A stretch of 64,000 nucleotides of DNA, from the NCBI GenBank assembly GCA_964016885.1, contig OZ024765.1, positions 7,750,001 through 7,814,000 on the forward strand. The letters are read 5' to 3'. The position numbers and the translations under genes were made by a program. This DNA is from Eledone cirrhosa (Eukaryota). Positions within the stretch are counted from its first letter, which is position 1, and the number at the start of each line of letters is the position of its first letter. Shown one piece after another: positions 11,605 to 58,001 of this stretch. The notes under the pieces were generated by a model, which worked only from the letters and a program-made list of their open reading frames with translations, had not been told where the DNA came from and did not search any database.

Positions 11605-11804
11605 NNNNNNNNNNNNNNNNNNNNNNNNNNNNNNNNNNNNNNNNNNNNNNNNNNNNNNNNNNNNNNNNNNNNNNNNNNNNNNNNNNNNNNNNNNNNNNNN
11701 NNNNNNNNNNNNNNNNNNNNNNNNNNNNNNNNNNNNNNNNNNNNNNNNNNNNNNNNNNNNNNNNNNNNNNNNNNNNNNNNNNNNNNNNNNNNNNNNNNNN
11801 NNNN
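11605..11804. other. Assembly gap (200 N)
   Basis: Run of N abutting the left end of the array, so true array length and left junction are unknown. Confidence 0.99.
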
Positions 11805-11884
11805 TATCTCCCCGAAAGATATAGTTATTCACAGCTTTACATTGGAATAGTGTACTACTATTTAAATATTAGTCCTTTAAATAT

Positions 11885-12210
11885 ATATTTCTATCATGTC
11901 CCCCCCCCCCACCTTCTTAGATTTATCTCCTCTAAATTTGCAATCCCTAAAGTTTAACATCTTTCTTCAGAAGACAGATTTCTTAATAATTCTGGTGTTT
12001 TCTGTTTTGTTCTTTTCTGGATTCCTTCAATAGCTTCTCCGTATTTTCTGAAGTCGTCTGACCATGCCCCAAAACAATATTCTAGGTCGTATCACACATA
12101 TCATTCAACTAGTGTTTTAGACTTCTCGACATTTAGCTTGGCAAAGGAATGTTTTATTATTCCTATCATCTGAATTCCTTTTTTTTCTTCAACATGTTTA
12201 GCCATCTTTA
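11885..12210 (-). mobile_element. Decayed CR1/L2-type LINE ORF2 3' fragment (once per unit)
   Basis: Minus translation ..QMIGIIKHSFAKL..DLEYCFGAWSDDFRKYGEAIEGIQKRTK..LRNLSSEERC*TLGIANLEE..RR..GDMIEIY resembles the CR1 C-terminus (LEYC..WSP..DIE.LE.VQRRATK..L.YEERL..L..LE.RR.RGDMIE). Stops and frameshifts are present; a second DMIEIFKIMK block lies at ~16250-16285. Confidence 0.85.
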
Positions 12211-13209
12211 AAATCATATTCATACATATTCACAATTCCTCGTGGAGGGGTATAAGAGAGATGTATAAATATAGCTGCATATTACTACAAAATAACTTGA
12301 ACCATATCGCGAAACATTTTGTAAAGTATCTCTGTAATTATTCTCATTTCGATTTTCTGGAGAATGTATTGACGTTTAAGATAGAGACAATTGCCCTTCT
12401 TCTAATAATCTCTTTGTCCATTCCATGTTTAGTCTCACAAAATATTGTTAATGCAAGATTTTACTCTAATGTAATAAATGTTACTTTTAAAAGACCGAAG
12501 TTCTCAATTTTCTTCTTTCTCTTGTATATTGATATCTAAAGGATGACAAATGTATAAATTATGTGATAGGGAGGAAAAAAAAAAGCCACGACCTTCTTCT
12601 CTCGTTACAGAAGGCTAACTGACAACGTCTTTCGCAGGAGTGACTAGTACTACTGCCTTTTATATACCGTGACAACTGAAAAGACGTGACAAATAAGGAT
12701 ACACTCTGCTCTCCTTATCAACATTGTCCGAGTCTGAGGGCCTTTCCTCCCTGGTTAAGGAGTGAGATAAAATATTAGGGATCAATCTCTAGCAATAATT
12801 TTTATCTAATTATTATCAAACAAAACAGATTTATATATTGTCGCCGTTGTACGTTAAAATCGCAAATATATTTATATACACACCAAGGATGGAGGGACGA
12901 CGGAATTGAAAACAATTATTGCTGAGTACATCACGGCAAGATCTAATCTAATAGATACACACACTCTCCCGTATATATTTAATAATCAGCTATGACCATG
13001 AAGAAGGTCCCTGTAGATCATCTGGTTGTAGGATCTAATGAACCCGAATGAAAGTGAAAATATATTTTATGAAAGCCCCAGAAGAATAAATGTAAACATT
13101 GACTCGATTATAGTAGAAATAAGAATGAGAAAGCCATGAACGCCATCACATCTATTTTGCTTGGAAATTGAAAGTAGGTTTATAAATATAAATTTTTTCT
13201 TATGTTCTT

Positions 13210-13291
13210 GTATCTGTTTCGTTGGCCTAATGGTAGGTGTTAGAGACTGATGTGGTGTTCAATCTCAGTCCGAATCTGTACTATATATTTT
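13210..13291 (+). ncRNA. Candidate Pol III small-RNA cassette 1 (once per unit)
   Basis: TATAAAT 13181; A box TGGCCTAATGG 13223-13233; B box GTTCAATCT 13257-13265; TTTT 13288-13291. A-B gap is 23 nt here and 34 nt in units 4, 5, 8 and 9. Confidence 0.45.
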
Positions 13292-13318
13292 AAAATTTAA
13301 ATTTTTCTCTAGCAAAGT

Positions 13319-13419
13319 AAAAAATGAAATTATTACCTATAGACTTTGACTGAGATCGAAACTCAGAGCAGGTTCTCCACCGTCTCTAATACCTACCATT
13401 AGGCCACGGAGACAGATAT
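13319..13419 (-). ncRNA. Candidate Pol III small-RNA cassette 2 (once per unit)
   Basis: TATAAAT 13447-13441; A box TGGCCTAATGG 13406-13396; T-arm-like CTGAG-TTTCGAT-CTCAG; T6 at 13324-13319. Confidence 0.5.
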
Positions 13420-13478
13420 AAAAACAGTGTGAAAATTAATATTTATAAAGTTACTTTTTTATTTTTGTTTTATACTAT

Positions 13479-13572
13479 AAAAAATCCAATACGACACACT
13501 GCCAGTGATTGGACCCCGGACCTGGACCTCCACCGGCACTAATACTTACCACTAAGCTAAAGGGACGGTTAC
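13479..13572 (-). ncRNA. Candidate Pol III small-RNA cassette 3 (once per unit)
   Basis: TATAAAT 13600-13594; A box TAGCTTAGTGG 13559-13549; B box GGTTCAATC in units 3-9 (GGTCCAATC in units 1-2) at 13515-13507; T6 at 13484-13479. Confidence 0.55.
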
Positions 13573-13615
13573 AGAAACTTACTGAAAATTAATATTTATA
13601 AACCTACTTTTTCAT

Positions 13616-13790
13616 TACTAGAAAAAACCGGAAGTGGAGAAAATTGAAAAACATCTTCTTTTTCTTCCTCTGACTTTTTTTTATCCAAAATTTGGATTTA
13701 AGTCAGAGACGAGTTATCGTTCGTGGCAAAAATCAGAGGAAGAAAAAGAAGAAGTTTTTCAATTTTCTCCACTTCCGGTTTTTTCTAGTA
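13616..13790. mobile_element. 175-bp MITE-like palindrome with 63-bp near-perfect arms (once per unit)
   Basis: tactagaaaaaaccggaagtggagaaaattgaaaaac(a/t)tcttctttttcttcctctgattttt and its reverse complement, 1-2 mismatches, ~49-nt spacer, TA at both ends. Confidence 0.8.
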
Positions 13791-13824
13791 TAGGTAAGTA
13801 AATATTAATTTTCAAAAAATTTTT

Positions 13825-13903
13825 GTAACCGTCCCTGTGGCCTAATGGTAAGCACTAGAGACGGTGGAGATCCTGATTTAGGGTTCGATTTCCGTTAGGT
13901 TTT
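13825..13903 (+). ncRNA. Candidate Pol III small-RNA cassette 4 (once per unit)
   Basis: Degraded TATA (agtaaat 13797); A box TGGCCTAATGG 13838-13848; B box GGTTCGATT 13882-13890; TTTT 13900-13903. Confidence 0.5.
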
Positions 13904-14740
13904 ATACTAATAACTGCGTATTTGTTTCTTTTATTAAGTAAGATTTGAACTCATAATGCTGTACTTTGTAGTAATGTCCCATATTATATTCAACATATTT
14001 TAATTAACATGTTTTTTTTTTATAAAAGAAAGAACAAAAAACCTTATTGAAATTAAGAAATGAATTTTATTCAGTAAAGTTGTTTTTATTTTGTTTTCAC
14101 TTCATTAACTGCTGAATACGTCTTTTGTTTTTGTTTTTGATTCTTTCTAACCATTGTTTACTGTGAATGGTGACTGCAACGAACCTGGATTATTACCAAG
14201 TTTCACTGGATGATTGTATTATTTTGTTGTCAGTGGACATCTGGACATCTATCTAAATACCTGGAATAAACACAAGGTGTGTGTTTTACGTAACATTTCA
14301 TTTTAATGTCTGATGTTCCTGCATTTCACATTTAAAATGTAACCAAAAATAAACAAGACAGGGACGCTACATCAAAATAAACCACACAGACGAGGTACGA
14401 ATAATCTAAAATTAATTTTAACAAACTATAAACGATGTTTAAAGAGAGACGAACATTAAAATAGGATTTCAAACAAACACGTAAACACAAAGACAATTAC
14501 AGCCGCCATAATCTAATATCTGAAGATCAACATTTTTCACGATAGAAATAAAACTAAATATGTAAAGTTTAGTGGCCCCTGATTTACTTGCTTTTAATTT
14601 CATTTTGATAATCTGTATTGTATTCTGTAGACATATATTTATGATTTTAATGATGAAATTTCCTCTTGTCTTTAAAAGATTATTACTTATAAAAATTATA
14701 ATAGTCACCTCCTCCTCTCGATTAATATGTAGCTTACCCA

Positions 14741-15058
14741 CAGGGGTTCCTCAACTGGGCGGTTTCAACTGTTGGGTGGGCGATGAGCAGCTGAACAGAA
14801 AATTGAGGGCCATTGGAAACTTTGGTGGCCGATATAGAATTTTGAGATTTAAGAAGGTATGCTACCCGAAAACCTATTCAAGGAATATATGCAAAGAACC
14901 TGAATAAAAATCAGGAAGCTAATTGGGAAAATTAAACCAGGAACAAACATTTACGAAACATATTTGGTATACTTTGGAATATTTACTATACAGGTGGCTG
15001 GTGGAACATTTTTTCATGTGAATGTGGGAAATGACGCCAAAATATTTGGCAACCCTTG
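14741..15058. mobile_element. Old non-autonomous hAT (Charlie-like) element (once per unit)
   Basis: Ends caggggttcctcaact...tatttggcaacccttg resemble CAGGGGTTCCCAAACT-type TIRs; flanks gcttaccca / gcttacac look like a decayed 8-bp target duplication. Confidence 0.6.
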
Positions 15059-15734
15059 GCTTACACCTTACTAAATGTTCTGGAGACAAGCCTCTTAGCT
15101 ATATATCATAGTTCTTCAATCCTTCATCTTCCACAGTTGGTGAAGTATTTCGATTTGATATGACGATCGCAGAGTTAGATTTAGGACGTGGTGGCGTTCA
15201 TGGGTTTCTTAGTGTTGTTACTAGAAAGGGTCGACTCTGTCTTTCACACTTCAGGTTTTTTCATGAATTAAATATCCATTTTCTTTCTGATCGGTCTAAC
15301 AATGATTTCAACCTACAATGACTCCGTCTGTAATAATGTTCTCTTATTTGAAATATGTCATACCTAACTCCCGTGTCTGTGTGTGTGAAAAATATTCCAA
15401 CTTAGAGCGACGTGCCCGTAAATTGTTTAGCCTGATTCCTATATATAGATAATGTGTAATATTTGAACCTTCATGGAGGGTCTTTGCCGTAATTTCCCGT
15501 AACTCCGACTAGAAGTCATTATGTAGTTTTTTCGTCCGTTAAAAATAATGATTAAAACAATTCTATATCCACAGTTATATACACCTCTTCATCACATATT
15601 ATATTATTTCCACCAATAACTACATTATATCCTTAAATATGACACCAAGACATATAATTTGTAAATAAAAGATAAAATATTAAAACCTCAATTTTTAAAT
15701 AATTTTACTCCACCTTTGTGTTCTCAGTGTTTAG

Positions 15735-15850
15735 ATTAACCCTTAATTTTTATGATTTGGAAGCATAAAACTTATAGTACCAGTCATGTACTGGGATCAA
15801 TTTAACGGATTGGTTCCTCCCCGCAAATTACTTGACTTTTGCCTAAGTAA
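15735..15850 (+). mobile_element. Highly decayed SINE 3' half (once per unit)
   Basis: agtaccagtcatgtactgggatcaatttaacggattggttcctccccgcaaattacttgacttttgcctaag aligns by eye to the SINE at 2350-2420. Confidence 0.65.
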
Positions 15851-18800
15851 GACATACTCACAGAATGTATCGATGTATATGTATGAATGTATATATATAT
15901 ATTAGTATATTTTATGTTTACAATAAAAATAGACAAACAATTTAATGATAATATGAAATGAAATTATTATTATTTATTAATAATATTTTTATTGTTTTCA
16001 CTGCATTAACTTCTGAGTGTGACTTTGGTTTTCTTACTATTTTCTACTGTAAATGGCGGCTTAATTGGATTATTACTAAGGTTTACTGGATTGTGGTGTT
16101 TCTTTATTGTTTTATATTTCAATCAGTGGACATCAGGATAGCTTTCTATATACCTGGGATAAATGTAAAGAGTACTGACTTTCATCTGCAGTTCAATGGT
16201 GATGTCTTCTTATATTTTCATTTACTTCTGCAATACTGTATATTGTAGTCTTTTCATTATTTTAAATATTTCTATCATGTCACTCGTTTGATATATCTCC
16301 CCGAAAGATATAGTTATTCACAGCTTTACATTGGAATAGTGTACTACTATTTAAATATTAGTCCTTTAAATATATATTTCTATCATGTCCCCCCCCCCCC
16401 CCCACCTTCTTAGATTTATCTCCTCTAAATTTGCAATCCCTAAAGTTTAACATCTTTCTTCAGAAGACAGATTTCTTAATAATTCTGGTGTTTTCTGTTT
16501 TGTTCTTTTCTGGATTCCTTCAATAGCTTCTCCGTATTTTCTGAAGTCGTCTGACCATGCCCCAAAACAATATTCTAGGTCGTATCACACATATCATTCA
16601 ACTAGTGTTTTAGACTTCTCGACATTTAGCTTGGCAAAGGAATGTTTTATTATTCCTATCATCTGAATTCCTTTTTTTTCTTCAACATGTTTAGCCATCT
16701 TTAAAATCATATTCATACATATTCACAATTCCTCGTGGAGGGGTATAAGAGAGATGTATAAATATAGCTGCATATTACTACAAAATAACTTGAACCATAT
16801 CGCGAAACATTTTGTAAAGTATCTCTGTAATTATTCTCATTTCGATTTTCTGGAGAATGTATTGACGTTTAAGATAGAGACAATTGCCCTTCTTCTAATA
16901 ATCTCTTTGTCCATTCCATGTTTAGTCTCACAAAATATTGTTAATGCAAGATTTTACTCTAATGTAATAAATGTTACTTTTAAAAGACCGAAGTTCTCAA
17001 TTTTCTTCTTTCTCTTGTATATTGATATCTAAAGGATGACAAATGTATAAATTATGTGATAGGGAGGAAAAAAAAAAGCCACGACCTTCTTCTCTCGTTA
17101 CAGAAGGCTAACTGACAACGTCTTTCGCAGGAGTGACTAGTACTACTGCCTTTTATATACCGTGACAACTGGAAAGACGTGACAAATAAGGATACACTCT
17201 GCTCTCCTTATCAACATTGTCCGAGTCTGAGGGCCTTTCCTCCCTGGTTAAGGAGTGAGATAAAATATTAGGGATCAATCTCTAGCAATAATTTTTATCT
17301 AATTATTATCAAACAAAACAGATTTATATATTGTCGCCGTTGTACGTTAAAATCGCAAATATATTTATATACACACCAAGGATGGAGGGACGACGGAATT
17401 GAAAACAATTATTGCTGAGTACATCACGGCAAGATCTAATCTAATAGATACACACACTCTCCCGTATATATTTAATAATCAGCTATGACCATGAAGAAGG
17501 TCCCTGTAGATCATCTGGTTGTAGGATCTAATGAACCCGAATGAAAGTGAAAATATATTTTATGAAAGCCCCAGAAGAATAAATGTAAACATTGACTCGA
17601 TTATAGTAGAAATAAGAATGAGAAAGCCATGAACGCCATCACATCTATTTTGCTTGGAAATTGAAAGTAGGTTTATAAATATAAATTTTTTCTTATGTTC
17701 TTGTATCTGTTTCGTTGGCCTAATGGTAGGTGTTAGAGACTGATGTGGTGTTCAATCTCAGTCCGAATCTGTACTATATATTTTAAAATTTAAATTTTTC
17801 TCTAGCAAAGTAAAAAATGAAATTATTACCTATAGACTTTGACTGAGATCGAAACTCAGAGCAGGTTCTCCACCGTCTCTAATACCTACCATTAGGCCAC
17901 GGAGACAGATATAAAAACAGTGTGAAAATTAATATTTATAAAGTTACTTTTTTATTTTTGTTTTATACTATAAAAAATCCAATACGACACACTGCCAGTG
18001 ATTGGACCCCGGACCTGGACCTCCACCGGCACTAATACTTACCACTAAGCTAAAGGGACGGTTACAGAAACTTACTGAAAATTAATATTTATAAACCTAC
18101 TTTTTCATTACTAGAAAAAACCGGAAGTGGAGAAAATTGAAAAACATCTTCTTTTTCTTCCTCTGATTTTTTTTTATCCAAAATTTGGATTTAAGTCAGA
18201 GACGAGTTATCGTTCGTGGCAAAAATCAGAGGAAGAAAAAGAAGAAGTTTTTCAATTTTCTCCACTTCCGGTTTTTTCTAGTATAGGTAAGTAAATATTA
18301 ATTTTCAAAAAATTTTTGTAACCGTCCCTGTGGCCTAATGGTAAGCACTAGAGACGGTGGAGATCCTGATTTAGGGTTCGATTTCCGTTAGGTTTTATAC
18401 TAATAACTGCGTATTTGTTTCTTTTATTAAGTAAGATTTGAACTAATAATGCTGTAGTTTGTAGTAATGTCCCATATTATATTCAACATATTTCAATTAA
18501 AATTTATTTTTTTTATAAAAGAAAGAACAAAAAACCTTATTGAAATTAAGAAATGAATTTTATTCAGTAAAGTTGTTTTTATTTTGTTTTCACTTCATTA
18601 ACTGCTGAATACGTCTTTTGTTTTTGTTTTTGATTCTTTCTAACCATTGTTTATTGTGAATGGTGACTGCAACGAACCTGGATTATTACCAAGTTTCACT
18701 GGATGATTGTATTATTTTGTTGTCAGTGGACATCTGGACATCTATCTAAATACCTGGAATAAACACAAGGCGTGTGTTTTACGTAACATTTCATTTTAAT

Positions 18801-21800
18801 GTCTGATGTTCCTGTATTTCACATTTAAAATGTAACCAAAAATAAACAAGACAGGGACGCTACATCAAAATAAACCACACAGACGAGGTACGAATAATCT
18901 AAAATTAATTTTAACAAACTATAAACGATGTTTAAAGAGAGACGAACATTAAAATAGGATTTCAAACAAACACGTAAACACAAAGACAATTACAGCCGCC
19001 ATAATCTAATATCTGAAGATCAACATTTTTCACGATAGAAATAAAACTAAATATGTAAAGTTTAGTGGCCCCTGATTTACTTGCTTTTAATTTCATTTTG
19101 ATAATCTGTATTGTATTCTGTAGACATATATTTATGATTTTAATGATGAAATTTCCTCTTGTCTTTAAAAGATTATTACTTATAAAAATTATAATAGTCA
19201 CCTCCTCCTCTCGATTAATATGTAGCTTACCCACAGGGGTTCCTCAACTGGGCGGTTTCAACTGTTGGGTGGGCGATGAGCAGCTGAACAGAAAATTGAG
19301 GGCCATTGGAAACTTTGGTGGCCGATATAGAATTTTGAGATTTAAGAAGGTATGCTACCCGAAAACCTATTCAAGGAATATATGCAAAGAACCTGAATAA
19401 AAATCAGGAAGCTAATTGGGAAAATTAAACCAGGAACAAACATTTACGAAACATATTTGGTATACTTTGGAATATTTACTATACAGGTGGCTGGTGGAAC
19501 ATTTTTTCATGTGAATGTGGGAAATGACGCCAAAATATTTGGCAACCCTTGGCTTACACCTTACTAAATGTTCTGGAGACAAGCCTCTTAGCTATATATC
19601 ATAGTTCTTCAATCCTTCATCTTCCACAGTTGGTGAAGTATTTCGATTTGATATGACGATCGCAGAGTTAGATTTAGGACGTGGTGGCGTTCATGGGTTT
19701 CTTAGTGTTGTTACTAGAAAGGGTCGACTCTGTCTTTCACACTTCAGGTTTTTTCATGAATTAAATATCCATTTTCTTTCTGATCGGTCTAACAATGATT
19801 TCAACCTACAATGACTCCGTCTGTAATAATGTTCTCTTATTTGAAATATGCCATACCTAACTCCCGTGTGTGTGTGTGTGAAAAATATTCCAACTTAGAG
19901 CGACGTGCCCGTAAATTGTTTAGCCTGATTCCTATATATAGATAATGTGTAATATTTGAACCTTCATGGAGGGTCTTTGCCGTAATTTCCCGTAACTCCG
20001 ACTAGAAGTCATTATGTAGTTTTTTCGTCCGTTAAAAATAATGATTAAAACAATTCTATATCCACAGTTATATACACCTCTTCATCACATATTATATTAT
20101 TTCCACCAATAACTACATTATATCCTTAAATATGACACCAAGACATATAATTTGTAAATAAAAGATAAAATATTAAAACCTCAATTTTTAAATAATTTTA
20201 CTCCACCTTTGTGTTCTCAGTGTTTAGATTAACCCATAATTTTTATGATTTGGGAGCATATAACTTATAGTACCAGTCATGTACTGGGATCAATTTAACG
20301 GATTGGTTCCTCCCCGCAAAATACTTGACTTTTGCCTAAGTAAGACATACTCACAGAATGTATCGATGTATATATATATATTAGTATATTTTATGTTTAC
20401 AATAAAAATAGACAAACAATTTAATGATAATATGAAATGAAATTATTATTATTTATTAATAATATTTTTATTGTTTTCACTGCATTAACTTCTGAGTGTG
20501 ACTTTGGTTTTCTTACTATTTTCTACTGTAAATGGCGGCTTAATTGGATTATTACTAAGGTTTACTGGATTGTGGTGTTTCTTTATTGTTTTATATTTCA
20601 ATCAGTGGACATCAGGATAGCTTTCTATATACCTGGGATAAATGTAAAGAGTACTGACTTTCATCTGCAGTTCAATGGTGATGTCTTCTTATATTTTCAT
20701 TTACTTCTGCAATACTGTAGTCTTTTCATTATTTTAAATATTTCTATCATGTCACTCGTTTGATATATCTCCCCGAAAGATATAGTTATTCAGAGCTTTA
20801 CATTGGAATAGTGTACTACTATTTAAATATTAGTCCTTTAAATATATATTTCTATCATGTCCCCCCCCCACCCCACCTTCTTAGATTTATCTCCTCTAAA
20901 TTTGCAATCCCTAAAGTTTAACATCTTTCTTCAGAAGACAGATTTCTTAATAATTCTGGTGTTTTCTGTTTTGTTCTTTTCTGGATTCCTTCAATAGCTT
21001 CTCCGTATTTTCTGAAGTCGTCTGACCATGCCCCAAAACAATATTCTAGGTCGTATCACACATATCATTCAACTAGTGTTTTAGACTTCTCGACATTTAG
21101 CTTGGCAAAGGAATGTTTTATTATTCCTATCATCTGAATTCCTTTTTTTTCTTCAACATGTTTAGCCATCTTTAAAATCATATTCATACATATTCACAAT
21201 TCCTCGTGGAGGGGTATAAGAGACATGTATAAATATAGCTGCATATTACTACAAAATAACTTGAACCATATCGCGAAACATTTTGTAAAGTATCTCTGTA
21301 ATTATTCTCATTTCGATTTTCTGGAGAATGTATTGACGTTTAAGATAGCGACAATTGCCCTTCTTCTAATAACCTCTTTGTCCATTCCATGTTTAGTCTC
21401 ACAAAATATTGTTAATGCAAGATTTTACTCTAATGTAATAAATGTTACTTTTAAAAGACCGAAGTTCTCAATTTTCTTCTTTCTCTTGTATATTGATATC
21501 TAAAGGATGACAAATGTATAAATTATGTGATAGGGAGGGAAAAAAAAAGCCACGACCTTCTTCTCTCGTTACAGAAGGCTAACTGACAACGTCTTTCGCA
21601 GGAGTGACTAGTACTACTGCCTTTTATATACCGTGACAACTGGAAAGATGTGACAAATAAGGATACACTCTGCTCTCCTTATCAACATTGTCCGAGTCTG
21701 AGGGCCTTTCCTCCCTGGTTAAGGAGTGAGATAAAATATTAGGGATCAATCTCTAGCAATAATTTTTATCTAATTATTATCAAACAAAACAGATTTATAT

Positions 21801-24800
21801 ATTGTCGCCGTTGTACGTTAAAATCGCAAATATATTTATATACACACCAAGGATGGAGGGACGACGGAATTGAAAACAATTATTGCTGAGTACATCACGG
21901 CAAGATCTAATCTAATAGATACACACACTCTCCCGTATATATTTAATAATCAGCTATGACCATGAAGAAGGTCCCTGTAGATCATCTGGTTGTAGGATCT
22001 AATGAACCCGAATGAAAGTGAAAATATATTTTATGAAAACCCCAGAAGAATAAATGTAAACATTGACTCGATTATAGTAGAAATAAGAATGAGAAAGCCA
22101 TGAACGCCATCACATCTATTTTGCTTGGAAATTGAAAGTAGGTTTATAAATATAAATTTTTTCTTATGTTCTTGTATCTGTTTCGTTGGCCTAATGGTAG
22201 GTGTTAGAGACTGATGTGGTGTTCAATCTCAGTCCGAATCTGTACTATATATTTTAAAATTTAAATTTTTCTCTAGCAAAGTAAAAAATGAAATTATTAC
22301 CTATAGACTTTGACTGAGATCGAAACTCAGAGCAGGTTCTCCACCGTCTCTAATACCTACCATTAGGCCACGGAGACAGATATAAAAACAGTGTGAAAAT
22401 TAATATTTATAAAGTTACTTTTTTATTTTTGTTTTATACTATAAAAAATCCAATACGACACACTGCCAGTGATTGAACCCCGGACCTGGACCTCCACCGG
22501 CACTAATACTTACCACTAAGCTAAAGGGACGGTTACAGAAACTTACTGAAAATTAATATTTATAAACCTACTTTTTCATTACTAGAAAAAACCGGAAGTG
22601 GAGAAAATTGAAAAACATCTTCTTTTTCTTCCTCTGATTTTTTTTTATCCAAAATTTGGATTTAAGTCAGAGACGAGTTATCGTTCGTGGCAAAAATCAG
22701 AGGAAGAAAAAGAAGAAGTTTTTCAATTTTCTCCACTTCCGGTTTTTTCTAGTATAGGTAAGTAAATATTAATTTTCAAAAAATTTTTGTAACCGTCCCT
22801 GTGGCCTAATGGTAAGCACTAGAGACGGTGGAGATCCTGATTTAGGGTTCGATTTCCGTTAGGTTTTATACTAATAACTGCGTATTTGTTTCTTTTATTA
22901 AGTAAGATTTGAACTAATAATGCTGTACTTTGTAGTAATGTCCCATATTATATTCAACATATTTTAATTAAAATTTATTTTTTTTATAAAAGAAAGAACA
23001 AAAAACCTTATTGAAATTAAGAAATGAATTTTATTCAGTAAAGTTGTTTTTATTTTGTTTTCACTTCATTAACTGCTGAATACGTCTTTTGTTTTTGTTT
23101 TTGATTCTTTCTAACCATTGTTTACTGTGAATGGTGACTGCAACGAACCTGGATTATTACCAAGTTTCACTGGATGATTGTATTATTTTGTTGTCAGTGG
23201 ACATCTGGACATCTATCTAAATACCTGGAATAAACACAAGGTGTGTGTTTTACGTAACATTTCATTTTAATGTCTGATGTTCCTGTATTTCACATTTAAA
23301 ATGTAACCAAAAATAAACAAGACAGGGACGCTACATCAAAATAAACCACACAGACGAGGTACGAATAATCTAAAATTAATTTTAACAAACTATAAACGAT
23401 GTTTAAAGAGAGACGAACATTAAAATAGGATTTCAAACAAACACGTAAACACAAAGACAATTACAGCCGCCATAATCTAATATCTGAAGATCAACATTTT
23501 TCACGATAGAAATAAAACTAAATATGTAAAGTTTAGTGGCCCCTGATTTACTTGCTTTTAATTTCATTTTGATAATCTGTATTGTATTCTGTAGACATAT
23601 ATTTATGATTTTAATGATGAAATTTCCTCTTGTCTTTAAAAGATTATTACTTATAAAAATTATAATAGTCACCTCCTCCTCTCGATTAATATGTAGCTTA
23701 CCCACAGGGGTTCCTCAACTGGGCGGTTTCAACTGTTGGGTGGGCGATGAGCAGCTGAACAGAAAATTGAGGGCCATTGGAAACTTTGGTGGCCGATATA
23801 GAATTTTGAGATTTAAGAAGGTATGCTACCCGAAAACCTATTCAAGGAATATATGCAAAGAACCTGAATAAAAATCAGGAAGCTAATTGGGAAAATTAAA
23901 CCAGGAACAAACATTTACGAAACATATTTGGTATACTTTGGAATATTTACTATACAGGTGGCTGGTGGAACATTTTTTCATGTGAATGTGGGAAATGACG
24001 CCAAAATATTTGGCAACCCTTGGCTTACACCTTACTAAATGTTCTGGAGACAAGCCTCTTAGCTATATATCATAGTTCTTCAATCCTTCATCTTCCACAG
24101 TTGGTGAAGTATTTCGATTTGATATGACGATCGCAGAGTTAGATTTAGGACGTGGTGGCGTTCATGGGTTTCTTAGTGTTGTTACTAGAAAGGGTCGACT
24201 CTGTCTTTCACACTTCAGGTTTTTTCATGAATTAAATATCCATTTTCTTTCTGATCGGTCTAACAATGATTTCAACCTACAATGACTCCGTCTGTAATAA
24301 TGTTCTCTTATTTGAAATATGCCATACCTAACTCCCGTGTGTGTGTGTGTGAAAAATATTCCAACTTAGAGCGACGTGCCCGTAAATTGTTTAGCCTGAT
24401 TCCTATATATAGATAATGTGTAATATTTGAACCTTCATGGAGGGTCTTTGCCGTAATTTCCCGTAACTCCGACTAGAAGTCATTATGTAGTTTTTTCGTC
24501 CGTTAAAAATAATGATTAAAACAATTCTATATCCACAGTTATATACACCTCTTCATCACATATTATATTATTTCCACCAATAACTACATTATATCCTTAA
24601 ATATGACACCAAGACATATAATTTGTAAATAAAAGATAAAATATTAAAACCTCAATTTTTAAATAATTTTACTCCACCTTTGTGTTCTCAGTGTTTAGAT
24701 TAACCCATAATTTTTATGATTTGGGAGCATATAACTTATAGTACCAGTCATGTACTGGGATCAATTTAACGGATTGGTTCCTCCCCGCAAAATACTTGAC

Positions 24801-27800
24801 TTTTGCCTAAGTAAGACATACTCACAGAATGTATCGATGTATATATATATATTAGTATATTTTATGTTTACAATAAAAATAGACAAACAATTTAATGATA
24901 ATATGAAATGAAATTATTATTATTTATTAATAATATTTTTATTGTTTTCACTGCATTAACTTCTGAGTGTGACTTTGGTTTTCTTACTATTTTCTACTGT
25001 AAATGGCGGCTTAATTGGATTATTACTAAGGTTTACTGGATTGTGGTGTTTCTTTATTGTTTTATATTTCAATCAGTGGACATCAGGATAGCTTTCTATA
25101 TACCTGGGATAAATGTAAAGAGTACTGACTTTCATCTGCAGTTCAATGGTGATGTCTTCTTATATTTTCATTTACTTCTGCAATACTGTATATTGTAGTC
25201 TTTTCATTATTTTAAATATTTCTATCATGTCACTCGTTTGATATATCTCCCCGAAAGATATAGTTATTCACAGCTTTACATTGGAATAGTGTACTACTAT
25301 TTAAATATTAGTCCTTTAAATATATATTTCTATCATGTCCCCCCCCCCCCACCTTCTTAGATTTATCTCCTCTAAATTTGCAATCCCTAAAGTTTAACAT
25401 CTTTCTTCAGAAGACAGATTTCTTAATAATTCTGGTGTTTTCTGTTTTGTTCTTTTCTGGATTCCTTCAATAGCTTCTCCGTATTTTCTGAAGTCGTCTG
25501 ACCATGCCCCAAAACAATATTCTAGGTCGTATCACACATATCATTCAACTAGTGTTTTAGACTTCTCGACATTTAGCTTGGCAAAGGAATGTTTTATTAT
25601 TCCTATCATCTGAATTCCTTTTTTTTCTTCAACATGTTTAGCCATCTTTAAAATCATATTCATACATATTCACAATTCCTCGTGGAGGGGTATAAGAGAG
25701 ATGTATAAATATAGCTGCATATTACTACAAAATAACTTGAACCATATCGCGAAACATTTTGTAAAGTATCTCTGTAATTATTCTCATTTCGATTTTCTGG
25801 AGAATGTATTGACGTTTAAGATAGCGACAATTGCCCTTCTTCTAATAACCTCTTTGTCCATTCCATGTTTAGTCTCACAAAATATTGTTAATGCAAGATT
25901 TTACTCTAATGTAATAAATGTTACTTTTAAAAGACCGAAGTTCTCAATTTTCTTCTTTCTCTTGTATATTGATATCTAAAGGATGACAAATGTATAAATT
26001 ATGTGACAGGGAGGAAAAAAAAAAAGCCACGACCTTCTTCTCTCGTTACAGAAGGCTAACTGACAACGTCTTTCGCAGGAGTGACTAGTACTACTGCCTT
26101 TTATATACCGTGACAACTGGAAAGACGTGACAAATAAGGATACACTCTGCTCTCCTTATCAACATTGTCCGAGTCTGAGGACCTTTCCTCCCTGGTTAAG
26201 GAGTGAGATAAAATATTAGGGATCAATCTCTAGCAATAATTTTTATCTAATTATTATCAAACAAAACAGATTTATATATTGTCGCCGTTGTACGTTAAAA
26301 TCGCAAATATATTTATATACACACCAAGGATGGAGGGACGACGGAATTGAAAACAATTATTGCTGAGTACATCACGGCAAGATCTAATCTAATAGATACA
26401 CACACTCTCCCGTATATATTTAATAATCAGCTATGACCATGAAGAAGGTCCCTGTAGATCATCTGGTTGTAGGATCTAATGAACCCGAATGAAAGTGAAA
26501 ATATATTTTATGAAAGCCCCAGAAGAATAAATGTAAACATTGACTCGATTATAGTAGAAATAAGAATGAGAAAGCCATGAACGCCATCACATCTATTTTG
26601 CTTGGAAATTGAAAGTAGGTTTATAAATATAAATTTTTTCTTATGTTCTTGTATCTGTTTCGTTGGCCTAATGGTAGGTGTTAGAGACTATGTAGACACT
26701 GATGTGGTGTTCAATCTCAGTCCGAATCTGTACTATGTATTTTAAAATTTAAATTTTTCTCTAGCAAAGTAAAAAATGAAATTATTACCTATAGACTTTG
26801 ACTGAGATCGAAACTCAGAGCAGGTTCTCCACCGTCTCTAATACCTACCATTAGGCCACGGAGACAGATATAAAAACAGTGTGAAAATTAATATTTATAA
26901 AGTTACTTTTTTATTTTTGTTTTATACTATAAAAAATCTAATACGACACACTGCCAGTGATTGAACCCCGGACCTGGACCTCCACCGGCTCTTATACTTA
27001 CCACTAAGCTAAAGGGACGGTTACAGAAACTTACTGAAAATTAATATTTATAAACCTACTTTTTCATTACTAGAAAAAACCGGAAGTGGAGAAAATTGAA
27101 AAACATCTTCTTTTTCTTCCTCTGATTTTTTTTTTATCCAAAATTTGGATTTAAGTCAGAGACGAGTTATCGTTCGTGGCAAAAATCAGAGGAAGAAAAA
27201 GAAGAAGTTTTTCAATTTTCTCCACTTCCGGTTTTTTCTAGTATAGGTAAGTAAATATTAATTTTCAAAAAATTTTTGTAACCGTCCCTGTGGCCTAATG
27301 GTAAGCACTAGAGACGGTGGAGATCCTGATTTAGGGTTCGATTTCCGTTAGGTTTTATACTAATAACTGCGTATTTGTTTCTTTTATTAAGTAAGATTTG
27401 AACTAATAATGCTGTACTTTGTAGTAATGTCCCATATTATATTCAACATATTTTAATTAACATTTTTTTTTTTTATAAAAGAAAGAACAAAAAAACCTTA
27501 TTGAAATTAAGAAATGAATTTTATTCAGTAAAGTTGTTTATATTTTGTTTTCACTTCATTAACTGCTGAATACGTCTTTTGTTTTTGTTTTTGATTCTTT
27601 CTAACCATTGTTTACTGTGAATGGTGACTGCAACGAACCTGGATTATTACCAAGTTTCACTGGATGATTGTATTATTTTGTTGTCAGTGGACATCTGGAC
27701 ATCTATCTAAATACCTGGAATAAACACAAGGTGTGTGTTTTACGTAACATTTCATTTTAATGTCTGATGTTCCTGTATTTCACATTTAAAATGTAACCAA

Positions 27801-30800
27801 AAATAAACAAGACAGGGACGCTACATCAAAATAAACCACACAGACGAGGTACGAATAATCTAAAATTAATTTTAACAAACTATAAACGATGTTTAAAGAG
27901 AGACGAACATTAAAATAGGATTTCAAACAAACACGTAAACACAAAGACAATTACAGCCGCCATAATCTAATATCTGAAGATCAACATTTTTCACGATAGA
28001 AATAAAACTAAATATGTAAAGTTTAGTGGCCCCTGATTTACTTGCTTTTAATTTCATTTTGATAATCTGTATTGTATTCTGTAGACATATATTTATGATT
28101 TTAATGATGAAATTTCCTCTTGTCTTTAAAAGATTATTACTTATAAAAATTATAATAGTCACCTCCTCCTCTCGATTAATATGTAGCTTACCCACAGGGG
28201 TTCCTCAACTGGGCGGTTTCAACTGTTGGGTGGGCGATGAGCAGCTGAACAGAAAATTGAGGGCCATTGGAAACTTTGGTGGCCGATATAGAATTTTGAG
28301 ATTTAAGAAGGTATGCTACCCGAAAACCTATTCAAGGAATATATGCAAAGAACCTGAATAAAAATCAGGAAGCTAATTGGGAAAATTAAACCAGGAACAA
28401 ACATTTACGAAACATATTTGGTATACTTTGGAATATTTACTATACAGGTGGCTGGTGGAACATTTTTTCATGTGAATGTGGGAAATGACGCCAAAATATT
28501 TGGCAACCCTTGGCTTACACCTTACTAAATGTTCTGGAGACAAGCCTCTTAGCTATATATCATAGTTCTTCAATCCTTCATCTTCCACAGTTGGTGAAGT
28601 ATTTCGATTTGATATGACGATCGCAGAGTTAGATTTAGGACGTGGTGGCGTTCATGGGTTTCTTAGTGTTGTTACTAGAAAGGGTCGACTCTGTCTTTCA
28701 CACTTCAGGTTTTTTCATGAATTAAATATCCATTTTCTTTCTGATCGGTCTAACAATGATTTCAACCTACAATGACTCCGTCTGTAATAATGTTCTCTTA
28801 TTTGAAATATGCCATACCTAACTCCCGTGTGTGTGTGTGTGAAAAATATTCCAACTTAGAGCGACGTGCCCGTAAATTGTTTAGCCTGATTCCTATATAT
28901 AGATAATGTGTAATATTTGAACCTTCATGGAGGGTCTTTGCCGTAATTTCCCGTAACTCCGACTAGAAGTCATTATGTAGTTTTTTCGTCCGTTAAAAAT
29001 AATGATTAAAACAATTCTATATCCACAGTTATATACACCTCTTCATCACATATTATATTATTTCCACCAATAACTACATTATATCCTTAAATATGACACC
29101 AAGACATATAATTTGTAAATAAAAGATAAAATATTAAAACCTCAATTTTTAAATAATTTTACTCCACCTTTGTGTTCTCAGTGTTTAGATTAACCCATAA
29201 TTTTTATGATTTGGGAGCATATAACTTATAGTACCAGTCATGTACTGGGATCAATTTAACGGATTGGTTCCTCCCCGCAAATTACTTGACTTTTGCCTAA
29301 GTAAGACATGCTCACAGAATGTATCGATGTATATATATATATATTAGTATATTTTATGTTTACAATAAAAATAGACAAACAATTTAATGATAATATGAAA
29401 TGAAATTATTATTATTTATTAATAATATTTTTATTGTTTTCACTGCATTAACTTCTGAGTGTGACTTTGGTTTTCTTACTATTTTCTACTGTAAATGGCG
29501 GCTTAATTGGATTATTACTAAGGTTTACTGGATTGTGGTGTTTCTTTATTGTTTTATATTTCAATCAGTGGACATCAGGATAGCTTTCTATATACCTGGG
29601 ATAAATGTAAAGAGTACTGACTTTCATCTGCAGTTCAATGGTGATGTCTTCTTATATTTTCATTTACTTCTGCAATACTGTATATTGTAGTCTTTTCATT
29701 ATTTTAAATATTTCTATCATGTCACTCGTTTGATATATCTCCCCGAAAGATATAGTTATTCAGAGCTTTACATTGGAATAGTGTACTACTATTTAAATAT
29801 TAGTCCTTTAAATATATATTTCTATCATGTCCCCCCACCCGCACACCTTCTTAGATTTATCTCCTCTAAATTTGCAATCCCTAAAGTTTAACATCTTTCT
29901 TCAGAAGACAGATTTCTTAATAATTCTGGTGTTTTCTGTTTTGTTCTTTTCTGGATTCCTTCAATAGCTTCTCCGTATTTTCTGAAGTCGTCTGACCATG
30001 CCCCAAAACAATATTCTAGGTCGTATCACACATATCATTCAACTAGTGTTTTAGACTTCTCGACATTTAGCTTGGCAAAGGAATGTTTTATTATTCCTAT
30101 CATCTGAATTCCTTTTTTTTCTTCAACATGTTTAGCCATCTTTAAAATCATATTCATACATATTCACAATTCCTCGTGGAGGGGTATAAGAGACATGTAT
30201 AAATATAGCTGCATATTACTACAAAATAACTTGAACCATATCGCGAAACATTTTGTAAAGTATCTCTGTAATTATTCTCATTTCGATTTTCTGGAGAATG
30301 TATTGACGTTTAAGATAGAGACAATTGCCCTTCTTCTAATAACCTCTTTGTCCATTCCATGTTTAGTCTCACAAAATATTGTTAATGCAAGATTTTACTC
30401 TAATGTAATAAATGTTACTTTTAAAAGACCGAAGTTCTCAATTTTCTTCTTTCTCTTGTATATTGATATCTAAAGGATGACAAATGTATAAATTATGTGA
30501 TAGGGAGGAAAAAAAAAAGCCACGACCTTCTTCCCTCGTTACAGAAGGCTAACTGACAACGTCTTTCGCAGGAGTGACCAGTACTACTGCCTTTTATATA
30601 CCGTGACAACTGGAAAGACGTGACAAATAAGGATACACTCTGCTCTCCTTATCAACATTGTCCGAGTCTGAGGGCCTTTCCTCCCTGGTTAAGGAGTGAG
30701 ATAAAATATTAGGGATCAATCTCTAGCAATAATTTTTATCTAATTATTATCAAACAAAACAGATTTATATATTGTCGCCGTTGTACGTTAAAATCGCAAA

Positions 30801-33800
30801 TATATTTATATACACACCAAGGATGGAGGGACGACGGAATTGAAAACAATTATTGCTGAGTACATCACGGCAAGATCTAATCTAATAGATACACACACTC
30901 TCCCGTATATATTTAATAATCAGCTATGACCATGAAGAAGGTCCCTGTAGATCATCTGGTTGTAGGATCTAATGAACCCGAATGAAAGTGAAAATATATT
31001 TTATGAAAGCCCCAGAAGAATAAATGTAAACATTGACTCGATTATAGTAGAAATAAGAATGAGAAAGCCATGAACGCCATCACATCTATTTTGCTTGGAA
31101 ATTGAAAGTAGGTTTATAAATATAAATTTTTTCTTATGATCTTGTATCTGTTTCGTTGGCCTAATGGTAGGTGTTAGAGACTATGTAGACACTGATGTGG
31201 TGTTCAATCTCAGTCCGAATCTGTACTATGTATTTTAAAATTTAAATTTTTCTCTAGCAAAGTAAAAAATGAAATTATTACCTATAGACTTTGACTGAGA
31301 TCGAAACTCAGAGCAGGTTCTCCACCGTCTCTAATACCTACCATTAGGCCACGGAGACAGATATAAAAACAGTGTGAAAATTAATATTTATAAAGTTACT
31401 TTTTTATTTTTGTTTTATACTATAAAAAATCTAATACGACACACTGCCAGTGATTGAACCCCGGACCTGGACCTCCACCGGCTCTTATACTTACCACTAA
31501 GCTAAAGGGACGGTTACAGAAACTTACTGAAAATTAATATTTATAAACCTACTTTTTCATTACTAGAAAAAACCGGAAGTGGAGAAAATTGAAAAACATC
31601 TTCTTTTTCTTCCTCTGATTTTTTTTTATCCAAAATTTGGATTTAAGTCAGAGACGAGTTATCGTTCGTGGCAAAAATCAGAGGAAGAAAAAGAAGAAGT
31701 TTTTCAATTTTCTCCACTTCCGGTTTTTTCTAGTATAGGTAAGTAAATATTAATTTTCAAAAAATTTTTGTAGCCGTCCCTGTGGCCTAATGGTAAGCAC
31801 TAGAGACGGTGGAGATCCTGATTTAGGGTTCGATTTCCCTTAGGTTTTATACTAATAACTGCGTATTTGTTTCTTTTATTAAGTAAGATTTGAACTAATA
31901 ATGCTGTAGTTTGTAGTAATGTCCCATATTATATTCAACATATTTTAATTAACATTTTTTTTTTTTATAAAAGAAAGAACAAAAAACCTTATTGAAATTA
32001 AGAAATGAATTTTATTCAGTAAAGTTGTTTTTATTTTGTTTTCACTTCATTAACTGCTGAATACGTCTTTTGTTTTTGTTTTTGATTCTTTCTAACCATT
32101 GTTTACTGTGAATGGTGACTGCAACGAACCTGGATTATTACCAAGTTTCACTGGATGATTGTATTATTTTGTTGTCAGTGGACATCTGGACATCTATCTA
32201 AATACCTGGAATAAACACAAGGTGTGTGTTTTACGTAACATTTCATTTTAATGTCTGATGTTCCTGTATTTCACATTTAAAATGTAACCAAAAATAAACA
32301 AGACAGGGACGCTACATCAAAATAAACCACACAGACGAGGTACGAATAATCTAAAATTAATTTTAACAAACTATAAACGATGTTTAAAGAGAGACGAACA
32401 TTAAAATAGGATTTCAAACAAACACGTAAACACAAAGACAATTACAGCCGCCATAATCTAATATCTGAAGATCAACATTTTTCACGATAGAAATAAAACT
32501 AAATATGTAAAGTTTAGTGGCCCCTGATTTACTTGCTTTTAATTTCATTTTGATAATCTGTATTGTATTCTGTAGACATATATTTATGATTTTAATGATG
32601 AAATTTCCTCTTGTCTTTAAAAGATTATTACTTATAAAAATTATAATAGTCACCTCCTCCTCTCGATTAATATGTAGCTTACCCACAGGGGTTCCTCAAC
32701 TGGGCGGTTTCAACTGTTGGGTGGGCGATGAGCAGCTGAACAGAAAATTGAGGGCCATTGGAAACTTTGGTGGCCGATATAGAATTTTGAGATTTAAGAA
32801 GGTATGCTACCCGAAAACCTATTCAAGGAATATATGCAAAGAACCTGAATAAAAATCAGGAAGCTAATTGGGAAAATTAAACCAGGAACAAACATTTACG
32901 AAACATATTTGGTATACTTTGGAATATTTACTATACAGGTGGCTGGTGGAACATTTTTTCATGTGAATGTGGGAAATGACGCCAAAATATTTGGCAACCC
33001 TTGGCTTACACCTTACTAAATGTTCTGGAGACAAGCCTCTTAGCTATATATCATAGTTCTTCAATCCTTCATCTTCCACAGTTGGTGAAGTATTTCGATT
33101 TGATATGACGATCGCAGAGTTAGATTTAGGACGTGGTGGCGTTCATGGGTTTCTTAGTGTTGTTACTAGAAAGGGTCGACTCTGTCTTTCACACTTCAGG
33201 TTTTTTCATGAATTAAATATCCATTTTCTTTCTGATCGGTCTAACAATGACTCCGTCTGTAATAATGTTCTCTTATTTGAAATATGCCATACCTAACTCC
33301 CGTGTGTGTGTGTGTGAAAAATATTCCAACTTAGAGCGACGTGCCCGTAAATTGTTTAGCCTGATTCCTATATATAGATAATGTGTAATATTTGAACCTT
33401 CATGGAGGGTCTTTGCCGTAATTTCCCGTAACTCCGACTAGAAGTCATTATGTAGTTTTTTCGTCCGTTAAAAATAATGATTAAAACAATTCTATATCCA
33501 CAGTTATATACACCTCTTCATCACATATTATATTATTTCCACCAATAACTACATTATATCCTTAAATATGACACCAAGACATATAATTTGTAAATAAAAG
33601 ATAAAATATTAAAACCTCAATTTTTAAATAATTTTACTCCACCTTTGTGTTCTCAGTGTTTAGATTAACCCATAATTTTTATGATTTGGGAGCATATAAC
33701 TTATAGTACCAGTCATGTACTGGGATCAATTTAACGGATTGGTTCCTCCCCGCAAATTACTTGACTTTTGCCTAAGTAAGACATGCTCACAGAATGTATC

Positions 33801-51800: not shown

Positions 51801-52165
51801 ATAGACAAACAATTTAATGATAATATGAAATGAAATTATTATTATTTATTAATAATATTTTTATTGTTTTCACTGCATTAACTTCTGAGTGTGACTTTGT
51901 TTTTCTTACTATTTTCTACTGTAAATGGCGGCTTAATTGGATTATTACTAAGGTTTACTGGATTGTGGTGTTTCTTTATTGTTTTATATTTCAATCAGTG
52001 GACATCAGGATAGCTTTCTATATACCTGGGATAAATGTAAAGAGTACTGACTTTCATCTGCAGTTCAATGGTGATGTCTTCTTATATTTTCATTTACTTC
52101 TGCAATACTGTATATTGTAGTCTTTTCATTATTTTAAATATTTCTATCATGTCACTCGTTTGATA

Positions 52166-57560: not shown

Positions 57561-57796
57561 ATATTTAGTAATCAGGTATGACCAATGAGGGTCGTTAATG
57601 GAGATCATCTGGTTGTGGGATCAAATCAACCCTGGCTAAATGAGATATCAAATCAAGATTTATTTTATCAAAGTATAACAATCAACGTCAACCCTTTATA
57701 GTATTAATTCGACTAAGAAAGGCATGAACACCACCACGTCAATTAAGCTTGGAAATAGAAAGTAGGTTTATAAATATTAATTTTCACCTAGTTTTT

Positions 57797-57894
57797 GTAT
57801 CCTTCTCGGTGGCCTATTGGTAAGTGTGAGAGATGACGAAGATCTTGGTCTCGAGTTCAATCTTGCCCAGGCACTACAAAATATTTTTTTTTTT
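57797..57894 (+). ncRNA. Candidate Pol III cassette, ancient copy, left member
   Basis: TATAAAT 57769; A box TGGCCTATTGG 57810-57820; B box GTTCAATC from 57855; T11 at 57884-57894. Confidence 0.5.
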
Positions 57895-57912: not shown

Positions 57913-58001
57913 AAAAAATAGCGGATTCTGGTCGAGATTGAACACCTGACTAGGATCACCACCGTCTCTAACACTTACCATTAAGCCACCGAGACAACTA
58001 C
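57913..58001 (-). ncRNA. Candidate Pol III cassette, ancient copy, right member
   Basis: TATAAAT 58029-58023; A box TGGCTTAATGG 57988-57978; B box GTTCAATC 57943-57936; T6 at 57918-57913. Confidence 0.5.

Follow-up and report, generated by a model that had tools for sequence, protein, structure and literature searches.

The window, a stretch of 64,000 nt from the 3.0-Gb genome of Eledone cirrhosa, lies on C26 and contains a tandem array of nine non-coding units (Table 1). Self-BLAST of the window showed that the units are 98-99% identical, and an older copy of the same sequence, copy B, lies near 57.5-58.2 kb and is ~70% identical to the array unit. Array-unit sequence was present in the contigs of both sequencing runs compared, and near-identical pieces occurred in a second organism. 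A protein-coding gene in the unit was rejected as a candidate, because seven diverged paralogous stretches revealed no conserved ORF and many frameshifting indels.

Each unit carries four short cassettes in the orientation +,-,-,+ and copy B carries two. This gives a total of 38, in line with the initial annotation, which had counted at least 36 cassettes and two in the ancient copy. The cassettes have the predicted layout of Pol III type-2 genes, with a TATA near -30, an A box, a B box and a T4 at fixed spacing. All nine positions previously given for the cassette-1 TATA were correct, each 42 nt before its A box (at 13223, 17716, 22187, 26664, 31157, 35632, 40096, 44608 and 49098). The TATA-to-A distances of 42, 41, 41 and 41 nt claimed for one unit hold for cassettes 1-3 (42/41/41 nt), as do those of copy B (41/41 nt), but cassette 4 has no TATAAA in its TATA block. 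The A-to-B gap is 34 nt in all six cassette types, as had been counted for the long allele of cassette 1, and 23 nt in the short allele found in five of the nine units. Two sequence details required revision: the cassettes were said to begin with GTA, but cassette 2 begins with ATA, and the internal motif said to be common to them is exact in cassette 2 and not elsewhere. Counted from the predicted start, the window cassettes reach their first T4 at +76 to +96.

Table 1. Features of the array, its first unit and copy B in the window
Feature	Position	Strand	Details
Tandem array, nine ~4.48-kb units	11805..52263		self-BLAST; one of several such arrays on C20 and C26
Upstream flank common to dispersed element D and other array types	13111..13170	+	motif at ~-85 to -58
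Cassette-1 upstream block, TATA 13181 (~-30)	13171..13198	+	most conserved part of the family
Cassette 1, short allele	13210..13291	+	predicted start 13210; A box 13223-13233; B box 13257-13265; gap 23; T4 from 13288
Cassette 1, long allele	26651..26743	+	gap 34; units 5, 8 and 9 likewise
Cassette 2	13321..13457	-	TATA 13447; predicted start 13419; A box 13406-13396; B box 13361-13353; T-run from 13324
Cassette 3	13481..13610	-	TATA 13600; predicted start 13572; A box 13559-13549; B box 13514-13506 (mutated in units 1-2); T-run from 13484
Inverted repeat between divergent cassettes 3 and 4	13617..13790		inner part of the 13524-13873 inverted duplication
Cassette 4	13787..13903	+	degraded TATA block; predicted start 13825; A box 13838-13848; B box 13883-13891; T4 13900-13903
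Copy B, cassette B1	57759..57893	+	TATA 57769; predicted start 57797; A box 57810-57820 (variant); T-run from 57884
Copy B, cassette B2	57913..58039	-	TATA 58029; predicted start 58001; A box 57988-57978; T-run from 57918; convergent with B1

A strict TATA-A-B pattern matched 21 of the 38 window cassettes and had 0 matches in each of 100 shuffles. The 17 failures were the nine copies of cassette 4 (TATA), the five short alleles of cassette 1, two copies of cassette 3 with C for T in the B box (units 1-2) and B1, which has an A-box variant. In sister arrays the cassette-1 A box was deleted in six distinct sequences, from the 18.5-Mb and 3.19-Mb arrays of C26. These damaged copies, 17/38 in the window and those without an A box in the sister arrays, argue against present constraint on every copy.

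The cassettes are not restricted to the window. Exact-match searches, whose counts are lower bounds on copy number, yielded 355 genome-wide matches to the upstream block with an A box at 20-26 nt (control, 0) and 421 to the internal motif, while a metagenome scan with the upstream block yielded 0. Three lineages were distinguished. Lineage M comprises non-coding units of 4.5-7.6 kb in arrays on C15, C18, C20, C22, C24 and C26. Here the cassette-1 motif had 194 matches, which correspond to ~190 array units of the window's kind, and matches to cassettes 2/4 were also found on C18 and C22. Lineage S forms clusters that are mostly near chromosome ends and have a tandemly duplicated B-box arm. Lineage D is a dispersed element of ~1.1-1.3 kb with one convergent cassette pair. 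Lineages M and D have the cassette and ~100-150 bp of 5' flank per side in common, whereas S shares the cassette only. A phylogenetic tree of 35 representatives, left from 39 after four with broken flanks were dropped, separated M from D and S with support 86/94; the tree is unrooted. A body-only profile recovered 234 distinct cassettes in the examined loci; the upstream block is retained in 212 of these and sits at exactly -30 in 174. The cassettes occur in convergent, direct and divergent arrangements. A MITE/TIR reading of the convergent pair was rejected, as its arms are only ~67-75% alike and the other two arrangements also exist.

We determined how conservation is distributed along the cassette by comparing 21 M types, defined as 85% clusters. 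Mean identity was 0.92 in the TATA block and 0.84 in both the A box and the B box, versus 0.57 in the 10-nt spacer, 0.66 in the leader, 0.73 between the boxes and 0.43 beyond them. On the tree of these array types, A/T sites of the TATA block changed 0.58 times each versus 2.25 times for the body (P = 9e-5), and A and B boxes together changed 1.8 times versus 3.2 at comparison sites (P = 0.006). The A and B boxes of D cassettes did not change more slowly (P = 0.45 and 0.22). The TATA block is slow in D copies as well (right cassette, P = 0.004), and its conservation is thus partly a matter of mutational context. Like the cassettes, U6 genes of the same genome have a TATA near -30 and a t/GTA start; no upstream element common to U6 or vault genes beyond TATA was seen by eye.

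Element D was abundant. A 21-mer from outside its cassettes had 589 exact matches and a 15-mer from its end had 455, and copies differ by ~6-8% from their majority sequence; from these values we roughly estimate that there may be one to a few thousand copies. All 30 end-anchored loci shared one common 3' end, mostly followed by (TA)n, and had variable 5' break points. Many also had a partial upstream copy, either direct or inverted. The fixed 3' end, 5' truncation, direct or inverted partial tandems and microsatellite targets suggest a non-autonomous element of the Penelope-like kind. No autonomous Penelope-like partner sharing the end of D was found among 30 of the 455 end-motif matches, and D contained no canonical hammerhead core and no Rfam ribozyme match. 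An LTR/TRIM reading was rejected, because the terminal repeats vary in length and orientation and the cassettes are internal. In 21 D copies picked without regard to their cassettes, the boxes had decayed to much the same degree as the inter-box region (0.074 versus 0.086, P = 0.42), and TATA, A box and B box were all intact in nine and seven of the 21. One D fragment is carried passively in a tRNA-Ser gene array.

Considering these features of D, the window cassettes could be relics of a mobile element: the pair would stem from an old D-related non-autonomous retroelement, of which one insertion was passively multiplied through segmental duplication, leaving leaky promoters that perform no service. 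Element D does hold the same convergent pair with the common flanks and is widely dispersed, many array cassettes are damaged, and the fragment in the tRNA-Ser array indicates that passive amplification occurs in this genome. Conversely, the array types take their own side of the unrooted tree and are more diverse than the D copies (tree length 4.1 for 21 types versus ~7-8% from the majority). Their promoter parts are selectively conserved, whereas the A and B boxes of D are not, and no part of D outside the cassettes and flanks aligns to the array unit. Given this greater diversity and the absence of the rest of D, it is no less probable that D captured the pair than that the arrays descended from D. 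The initial annotation had stated that its reading would fail if the cassette and its flank belonged to a dispersed transposon. A pair with its flank does lie inside element D, which goes halfway towards that outcome, but the window cassettes form a separate and more diverse lineage, and we consider it improbable that they are relics.

Body patterns of the window types also identified 14 solitary copies on large chromosomes: nine of cassette 2, one of the long allele of cassette 1, one of cassette 3 and three that are cassette-4-like. For the cassette-2 pattern, 15 of 16 matches on C1-C17 were examined and six of the 15 were excluded (types absent from the window, tandem or fold-back); matches on C19 and C23 lie outside the set of 14. 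Ten of the 14 copies begin at -5 to +3 of the predicted start, with unrelated DNA upstream and the TATA flank missing, and the other four begin at +8, +12, +16 and +25. A uniform null over -100 to +53 gives P ~1e-10 for ten such starts, and among 28 element-D fragments none begins in this range (Fisher P = 7e-7 versus 10/14). The ten copies are 89-100% identical to window types. In two of them the junction is hard to place because (TA)n adjoins it, and the flanks of another two are TA-like in part; clean 5' junctions were found in L256, L264, L268, L304 and L319. The last of these is the long allele of cassette 1 and is identical at 87/87 nt from the start. The 3' ends of twelve of the 14 copies fall at +82 to +102, where the copies either stop no later than the T-run or pass over into (TA)n. 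The other two extend further, to +133 and +160. These boundaries agree with the four starts predicted for the first unit (Table 1) and with the oligo-U ends that the initial annotation had expected. Transcription of the family is likely, judging from the retrocopies whose 5' end coincides with the predicted +1. As this end precedes tRNA position 1 by 6 nt, the RNA would not, as a rule, be trimmed by RNase P.

Cassette 2 has the most retrocopies, and all nine carry the allele of sister arrays and none the window's own. The cassette-4-like retrocopies likewise differ from the TATA-less cassette 4 of the window. The activity suggested by the retrocopies is therefore that of the family rather than specifically of the window array. 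One locus, L291, appears in the assembly as a concatemer of five head-to-tail 106-bp units of a cassette-4-like allele, and contigs from four sequencing runs did not bridge its junctions. At each inner junction the +1 G directly follows two T, the first of the T-run, whereas the outer ends lack both this G and the last ten letters before it. Their absence suggests that the junction arose from end-joined RNA or a template jump, and as assembled the junction implies a putative RNA with the predicted ends.

Some body-only copies adjoin repeats. Of 41 such copies, taken over all types, 16 have a repeat that begins at +76 to +125, versus 5 of 60 random windows (P = 3e-4), and in 11 of the 41 a clear full-length SINE on the same strand starts at the T-run (P = 0.024). 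No convincing target-site duplication (TSD) was found in 6 + 20 retrocopy loci. In view of this, it is possible that the SINE of these chimeras was inserted later at the T-run, rather than being joined by template switching.

Retroposition raises the alternative of a nascent simple SINE, similar to ID, whose source genes would be the intact cassettes, maintained by selfish retroposition. Tailless retrocopies and chimeras are indeed known for several cassette types. However, there are only tens of body-only copies over all types, versus several hundred DNA-duplicated cassette genes, and one solitary copy among the first 100 listed cassette-1 matches. The retrocopies lack the TATA block and thus cannot have founded the TATA-bearing array genes. 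They also have no common tail and no TSD, whereas SINEBase asks for at least 100 non-tandem interspersed copies, a body/tail and a TSD (PMC3531059). The statement of the initial annotation that the cassettes are not SINEs is consistent with their copy number, dispersal and lack of a tail and TSD, and we regard a nascent SINE as quite unlikely.

We also asked what the RNA might look like. Six of seven single folds gave a 5' hairpin that encloses the old D arm, with stabilities that are not unusual (z -0.2 to -2.0). In an alignment of 25 types, chosen from the 39 representatives, a two-hairpin fold paired 80% of cells and a cloverleaf 59%. No covariation beyond shuffles was detected for either fold in these 25 sequences (two-hairpin: 312/500 shuffles as high), and they have no consensus terminal stem. 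Within the cloverleaf, the D-stem was paired in 86% of cells, the acceptor stem in 58% and the anticodon stem in 24%. The previous description of acceptor and anticodon stems as unpaired is therefore accurate for the anticodon stem, while the acceptor stem partly pairs. Based on box spacing, the D-stem and the partial acceptor stem, the cassettes are likely of tRNA ancestry. No parent tRNA was found among 25 Thr/Ala/Ser/Ile/Val/Asp genes, to which the cassettes have weak similarity (z up to 5.8 across these six amino acids); they may also resemble tRNA-Glu/Arg.

Vault RNA genes combine a TATA with internal boxes. The cassettes resemble them in this hybrid layout and in a length of 80-100 nt, and the initial annotation had proposed a vault-like or tRNA-derived RNA. 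The genome contains 14 separate genes above the RF00006 gathering score at C3:221.18-221.25 Mb, which have their own terminal stems and T-runs. Cassette bodies aligned to these genes no better than shuffles (z -0.5 and -0.8), and RF00006 had no match at E up to 10 in the array unit and two related loci. Together with the missing consensus terminal stem, this makes a vault identity very unlikely. At gathering thresholds, Rfam matched nothing in the window or 14 loci, and E-value scans gave only generic hairpin (miRNA-model) matches. An E-value scan of the array unit had no match to any of the models that the initial annotation had suggested for comparison (tRNA, vault, Y and 7SL/SRP).

That the cassettes are functional or merely decaying tRNA genes is hardly credible despite their tRNA-like A-to-B distance, D-stem and partial acceptor stem, given that ARAGORN and the Rfam tRNA model found 0 tRNAs in the window and 25 related loci, the anticodon stem is largely unpaired, the cassette TATA block is missing from the differing 5' flanks of the 13 full tRNA-scoring loci inspected, and retrocopies begin upstream of tRNA position 1. 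The main view of the initial annotation, DNA-duplicated Pol III-type genes that are not tRNAs, is sustained.

Taken together, it is probable from these sequence comparisons that the cassettes represent a genome-wide family of several hundred short genes, which were multiplied mainly by DNA duplication, are likely derived from a tRNA and are likely transcribed by Pol III into RNAs of 75-105 nt. The roles of TFIIIC and TFIIIB at A and B boxes and at TATA are established. In the cassettes, TFIIIC would bind the A and B boxes and TFIIIB would be placed by the TATA at -30; initiation would be at a purine that lies 13 nt ahead of the A box, and termination in the first T-run. This hybrid promoter would drive Pol III transcription in the germline or early embryo. 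As modelled, the RNA would form two hairpins and no cloverleaf, with the old D arm inside the 5' hairpin and the B box inside the 3' one. Because reverse transcriptases of retroelements appear to have occasionally copied the RNA into new sites, it would have been made in cells that pass on their DNA. Judged from the boundaries of the copies, the reverse-transcribed RNA may have been inserted on its own, with a SINE fused to it, or as several copies joined end to end.

If the cassettes are such a gene family, the conservation of the promoter rather than the fold points to transcription, or TFIIIC/Pol III occupancy itself, as the most likely selected property. At close to even chances, what is selected would be this occupancy or transcription, comparable to a tDNA-like chromatin mark on arrays and subtelomeres, with the RNA loosely constrained. 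A role at the RNA level is a tenable but more doubtful option, and the absence of any current role is an unlikely one. If only the promoter is selected, the family would be a natural experiment on the contribution of Pol III/TFIIIC sites to the persistence of tandem arrays and subtelomeres. The initial annotation had put the cassettes forward as a possible reason for keeping the array; such a role is conceivable, but 17 of the 38 window cassettes are damaged, sister arrays have lost the cassette-1 A box, and amplification can be passive in this genome, as with the D fragment in the tRNA-Ser array. A bolder reading, to which we give little credence, is that of an abundant lineage-specific germline Pol III RNA from a refolded tRNA, selected, encoded by several hundred genes and joinable end to end or circularisable. 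Such an RNA would travel three ways at once, in macrosatellite and subtelomeric arrays, as Penelope-like cargo and as tailless retrocopies. If true, it would constitute a source of new SINE heads caught in the act and a new functional small-RNA class in this animal group.

We found no description of the cassette family in the open literature, although element D or the cassette may be catalogued in Repbase/Dfam; a 2026 retrozyme preprint mentions neither Pol III nor molluscs. Several known systems resemble the family in part. Vault RNA (RF00006) is similar in length range and differs from the cassettes in its RF00006 score, its terminal stem and its separate genes in this genome. BC1 is a lineage-specific rodent Pol III RNA. 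Like the cassettes, simple tRNA-derived SINEs and their source genes, such as ID/BC1, have a tRNA-type head that is no longer a cloverleaf, as well as retroposed copies. Unlike these, the cassettes are mostly tandem DNA duplicates with a common 5' flank, and their retrocopies are few, tailless and without TSD.

The chimeras resemble those of U6 and retroelements, which have a small-RNA copy at the 5' side and a retroelement at the 3' side and are read as products of template switching; U6/Alu chimeras are called rare (PMC4476161). In the cassette chimeras, by contrast, the partners are full-length SINEs and no TSD was found. Element D shares a fixed 3' end, frequent 5' truncation, partial tandems as pseudo-LTRs, inverted copies, (TA)n targets and the lack of a canonical hammerhead with non-autonomous Penelope-like elements (PMC8557442). 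It differs from them in being non-coding, in carrying a convergent pair of Pol III-type cassettes and in having no autonomous partner in 30 loci. A mobile element with a tRNA-like A/B-box sequence and common flanks is also known in Helenus/TRIMp3, where the tRNA-like part lies in two direct LTRs and is accompanied by a PBS, a PPT and a 4-5-bp TSD (PMC10886601). The cassettes of D are inverted and internal, and neither a PBS or PPT nor direct LTRs or a 4-5-bp TSD were seen.

By analogy, the closest history to that of the cassette family may be that of primate snaR. The snaR genes of great apes are also short Pol III genes with A and B boxes, which expanded mainly by segmental duplication into large tandem arrays and have few retroposed relatives (PMC3337139; PMC3045588). 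They descend from Alu/7SL, occupy ~30 loci, have an oligo-A/U end and have shown expression and NF90 binding (PMC3337139; PMC3045588). The cassettes differ in their tRNA-type spacing, conserved external TATA block, convergent or divergent clusters and several hundred copies, and are known from sequence. As they have no 7SL/SRP match, they do not share the FLAM-C/Alu descent of snaR and the analogy is one of history only. Primates (snaR) and rodents provide the best-known examples of lineage-specific Pol III RNAs that originated in tRNAs or SINEs and multiplied through DNA duplication. The cassette family would add an invertebrate case with more than 10 times the copy number of snaR, in which both RNA ends can be read from retrocopies and a single genome appears to show the intermediates: a tRNA-type gene, an array passenger, a retroelement cargo and a proto-SINE.

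On its left, the array of ~4.48-kb units in the window borders on a run of N, and it may reach further in that direction. At its right end lies a rearranged partial unit, equivalent to 15054-16460 and 94% identical to it. Two further elements were found besides the candidate Pol III genes (cassettes). The TATATAAA-type element is oriented away from cassette 1 and kept in all seven aligned paralogous stretches (7/7); it may serve as the Pol II promoter for a non-coding transcript from within the unit. The other is a degenerate A/B-box element with a longer inter-box and no TATA block. Outside the family, it matched the cassette bodies best (z 7), and weaker traces of it occur at two other sites. 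The array unit may have been built out of even older cassette copies.

Coordinates of features in the window and at loci elsewhere in the genome
Feature	Location	Strand
Run of N, array start	window ~11600-11810	
Partial unit, array end	window 52262-53780	
TATATAAA-type element	window 12650-12680	minus
Further TATATAAA-type elements	window ~54140-54170, ~57080-57100	
Degenerate A/B-box element	window 58700-58800	minus
Weaker A/B-box traces	window near 12775, 57235	
Element D, example	L176:4504-5597	
Element D, further copies	L187-L216, L224-L253	
Broken Penelope-type element	L179:1180-3700	
Hammerhead-like core	L179, near 1380-1425	minus
LINE-type ORF pieces	L182:6753-9710, L183:9200-9820	
Five-copy cassette-4-like array	L291:1460-1985 (G000:C3:300.677 Mb)	
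Repeat beside retrocopies	L291:1330-1460, L259 5' flank, L319 3' flank	
Cassette-fragment array	L267 (G000:C14:3.50 Mb)	
tRNA-Ser(TGA) array	L217-L220 (G000:C1:441.19-441.22 Mb)	
U6 array	L139-L156 (G000:C19:31.78-31.84 Mb)	
tRNA-scoring copies	L123, L125-L133	
Vault-scoring genes	L157-L171 (G000:C3:221.18-221.25 Mb; one on C4)	

Beyond the window, some cassettes lie in or next to mobile sequences. Element D is dispersed and non-coding. The structure of its insertions is Penelope-like, and its cargo consists of two Pol III cassettes in convergent orientation. Only 1.4 kb separates one D copy from a broken Penelope-type element that comprises RT and GIY-YIG pieces and a hammerhead-like core; the two probably have a (TA)n target in common. 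Pieces of a LINE-type reverse transcriptase ORF, which we take to be L1/Tx1-like, directly adjoin subtelomeric cassette clusters. At L291, five copies of a cassette-4-like RNA are joined head-to-tail, terminator to start. This arrangement may stem from a small RNA that was circular or ligated, or from repeated template jumping. One abundant repeat adjoins this and two other independent retrocopies (L259 and L319), and may be the element whose machinery produced them. Separately, L267 is a short tandem array built from cassette fragments.

Genes for tRNA and U6 also occur in tandem. A tRNA-Ser(TGA) gene is repeated every 1.68 kb, each unit including a truncated D fragment. Approximately 30 U6 genes with a period of 1.8 kb have a variant 5' stem; their TATA lies at -30, and near -75 there is an octamer-like word. 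Dispersed over five contigs, the tRNA-scoring copies share both 5' and 3' flanks, while their anticodon calls vary (Ala, Val, Thr, Asp). Given this pattern, they are probably a mobile element with a tRNA-like gene aboard; if so, tRNA counts would be inflated.

For protostome vault RNAs, a narrow literature search returned work on Fasciola as the only relevant find. In Eledone cirrhosa, 14 clustered genes on C3, at 34-43 bits, exceed the gathering score that Rfam sets for Vault, as does one further gene on C4. The clustered genes form two subtypes and possess a terminal stem, a T-run and a TATA-like -30 element. They are likely the vault RNAs of this species.
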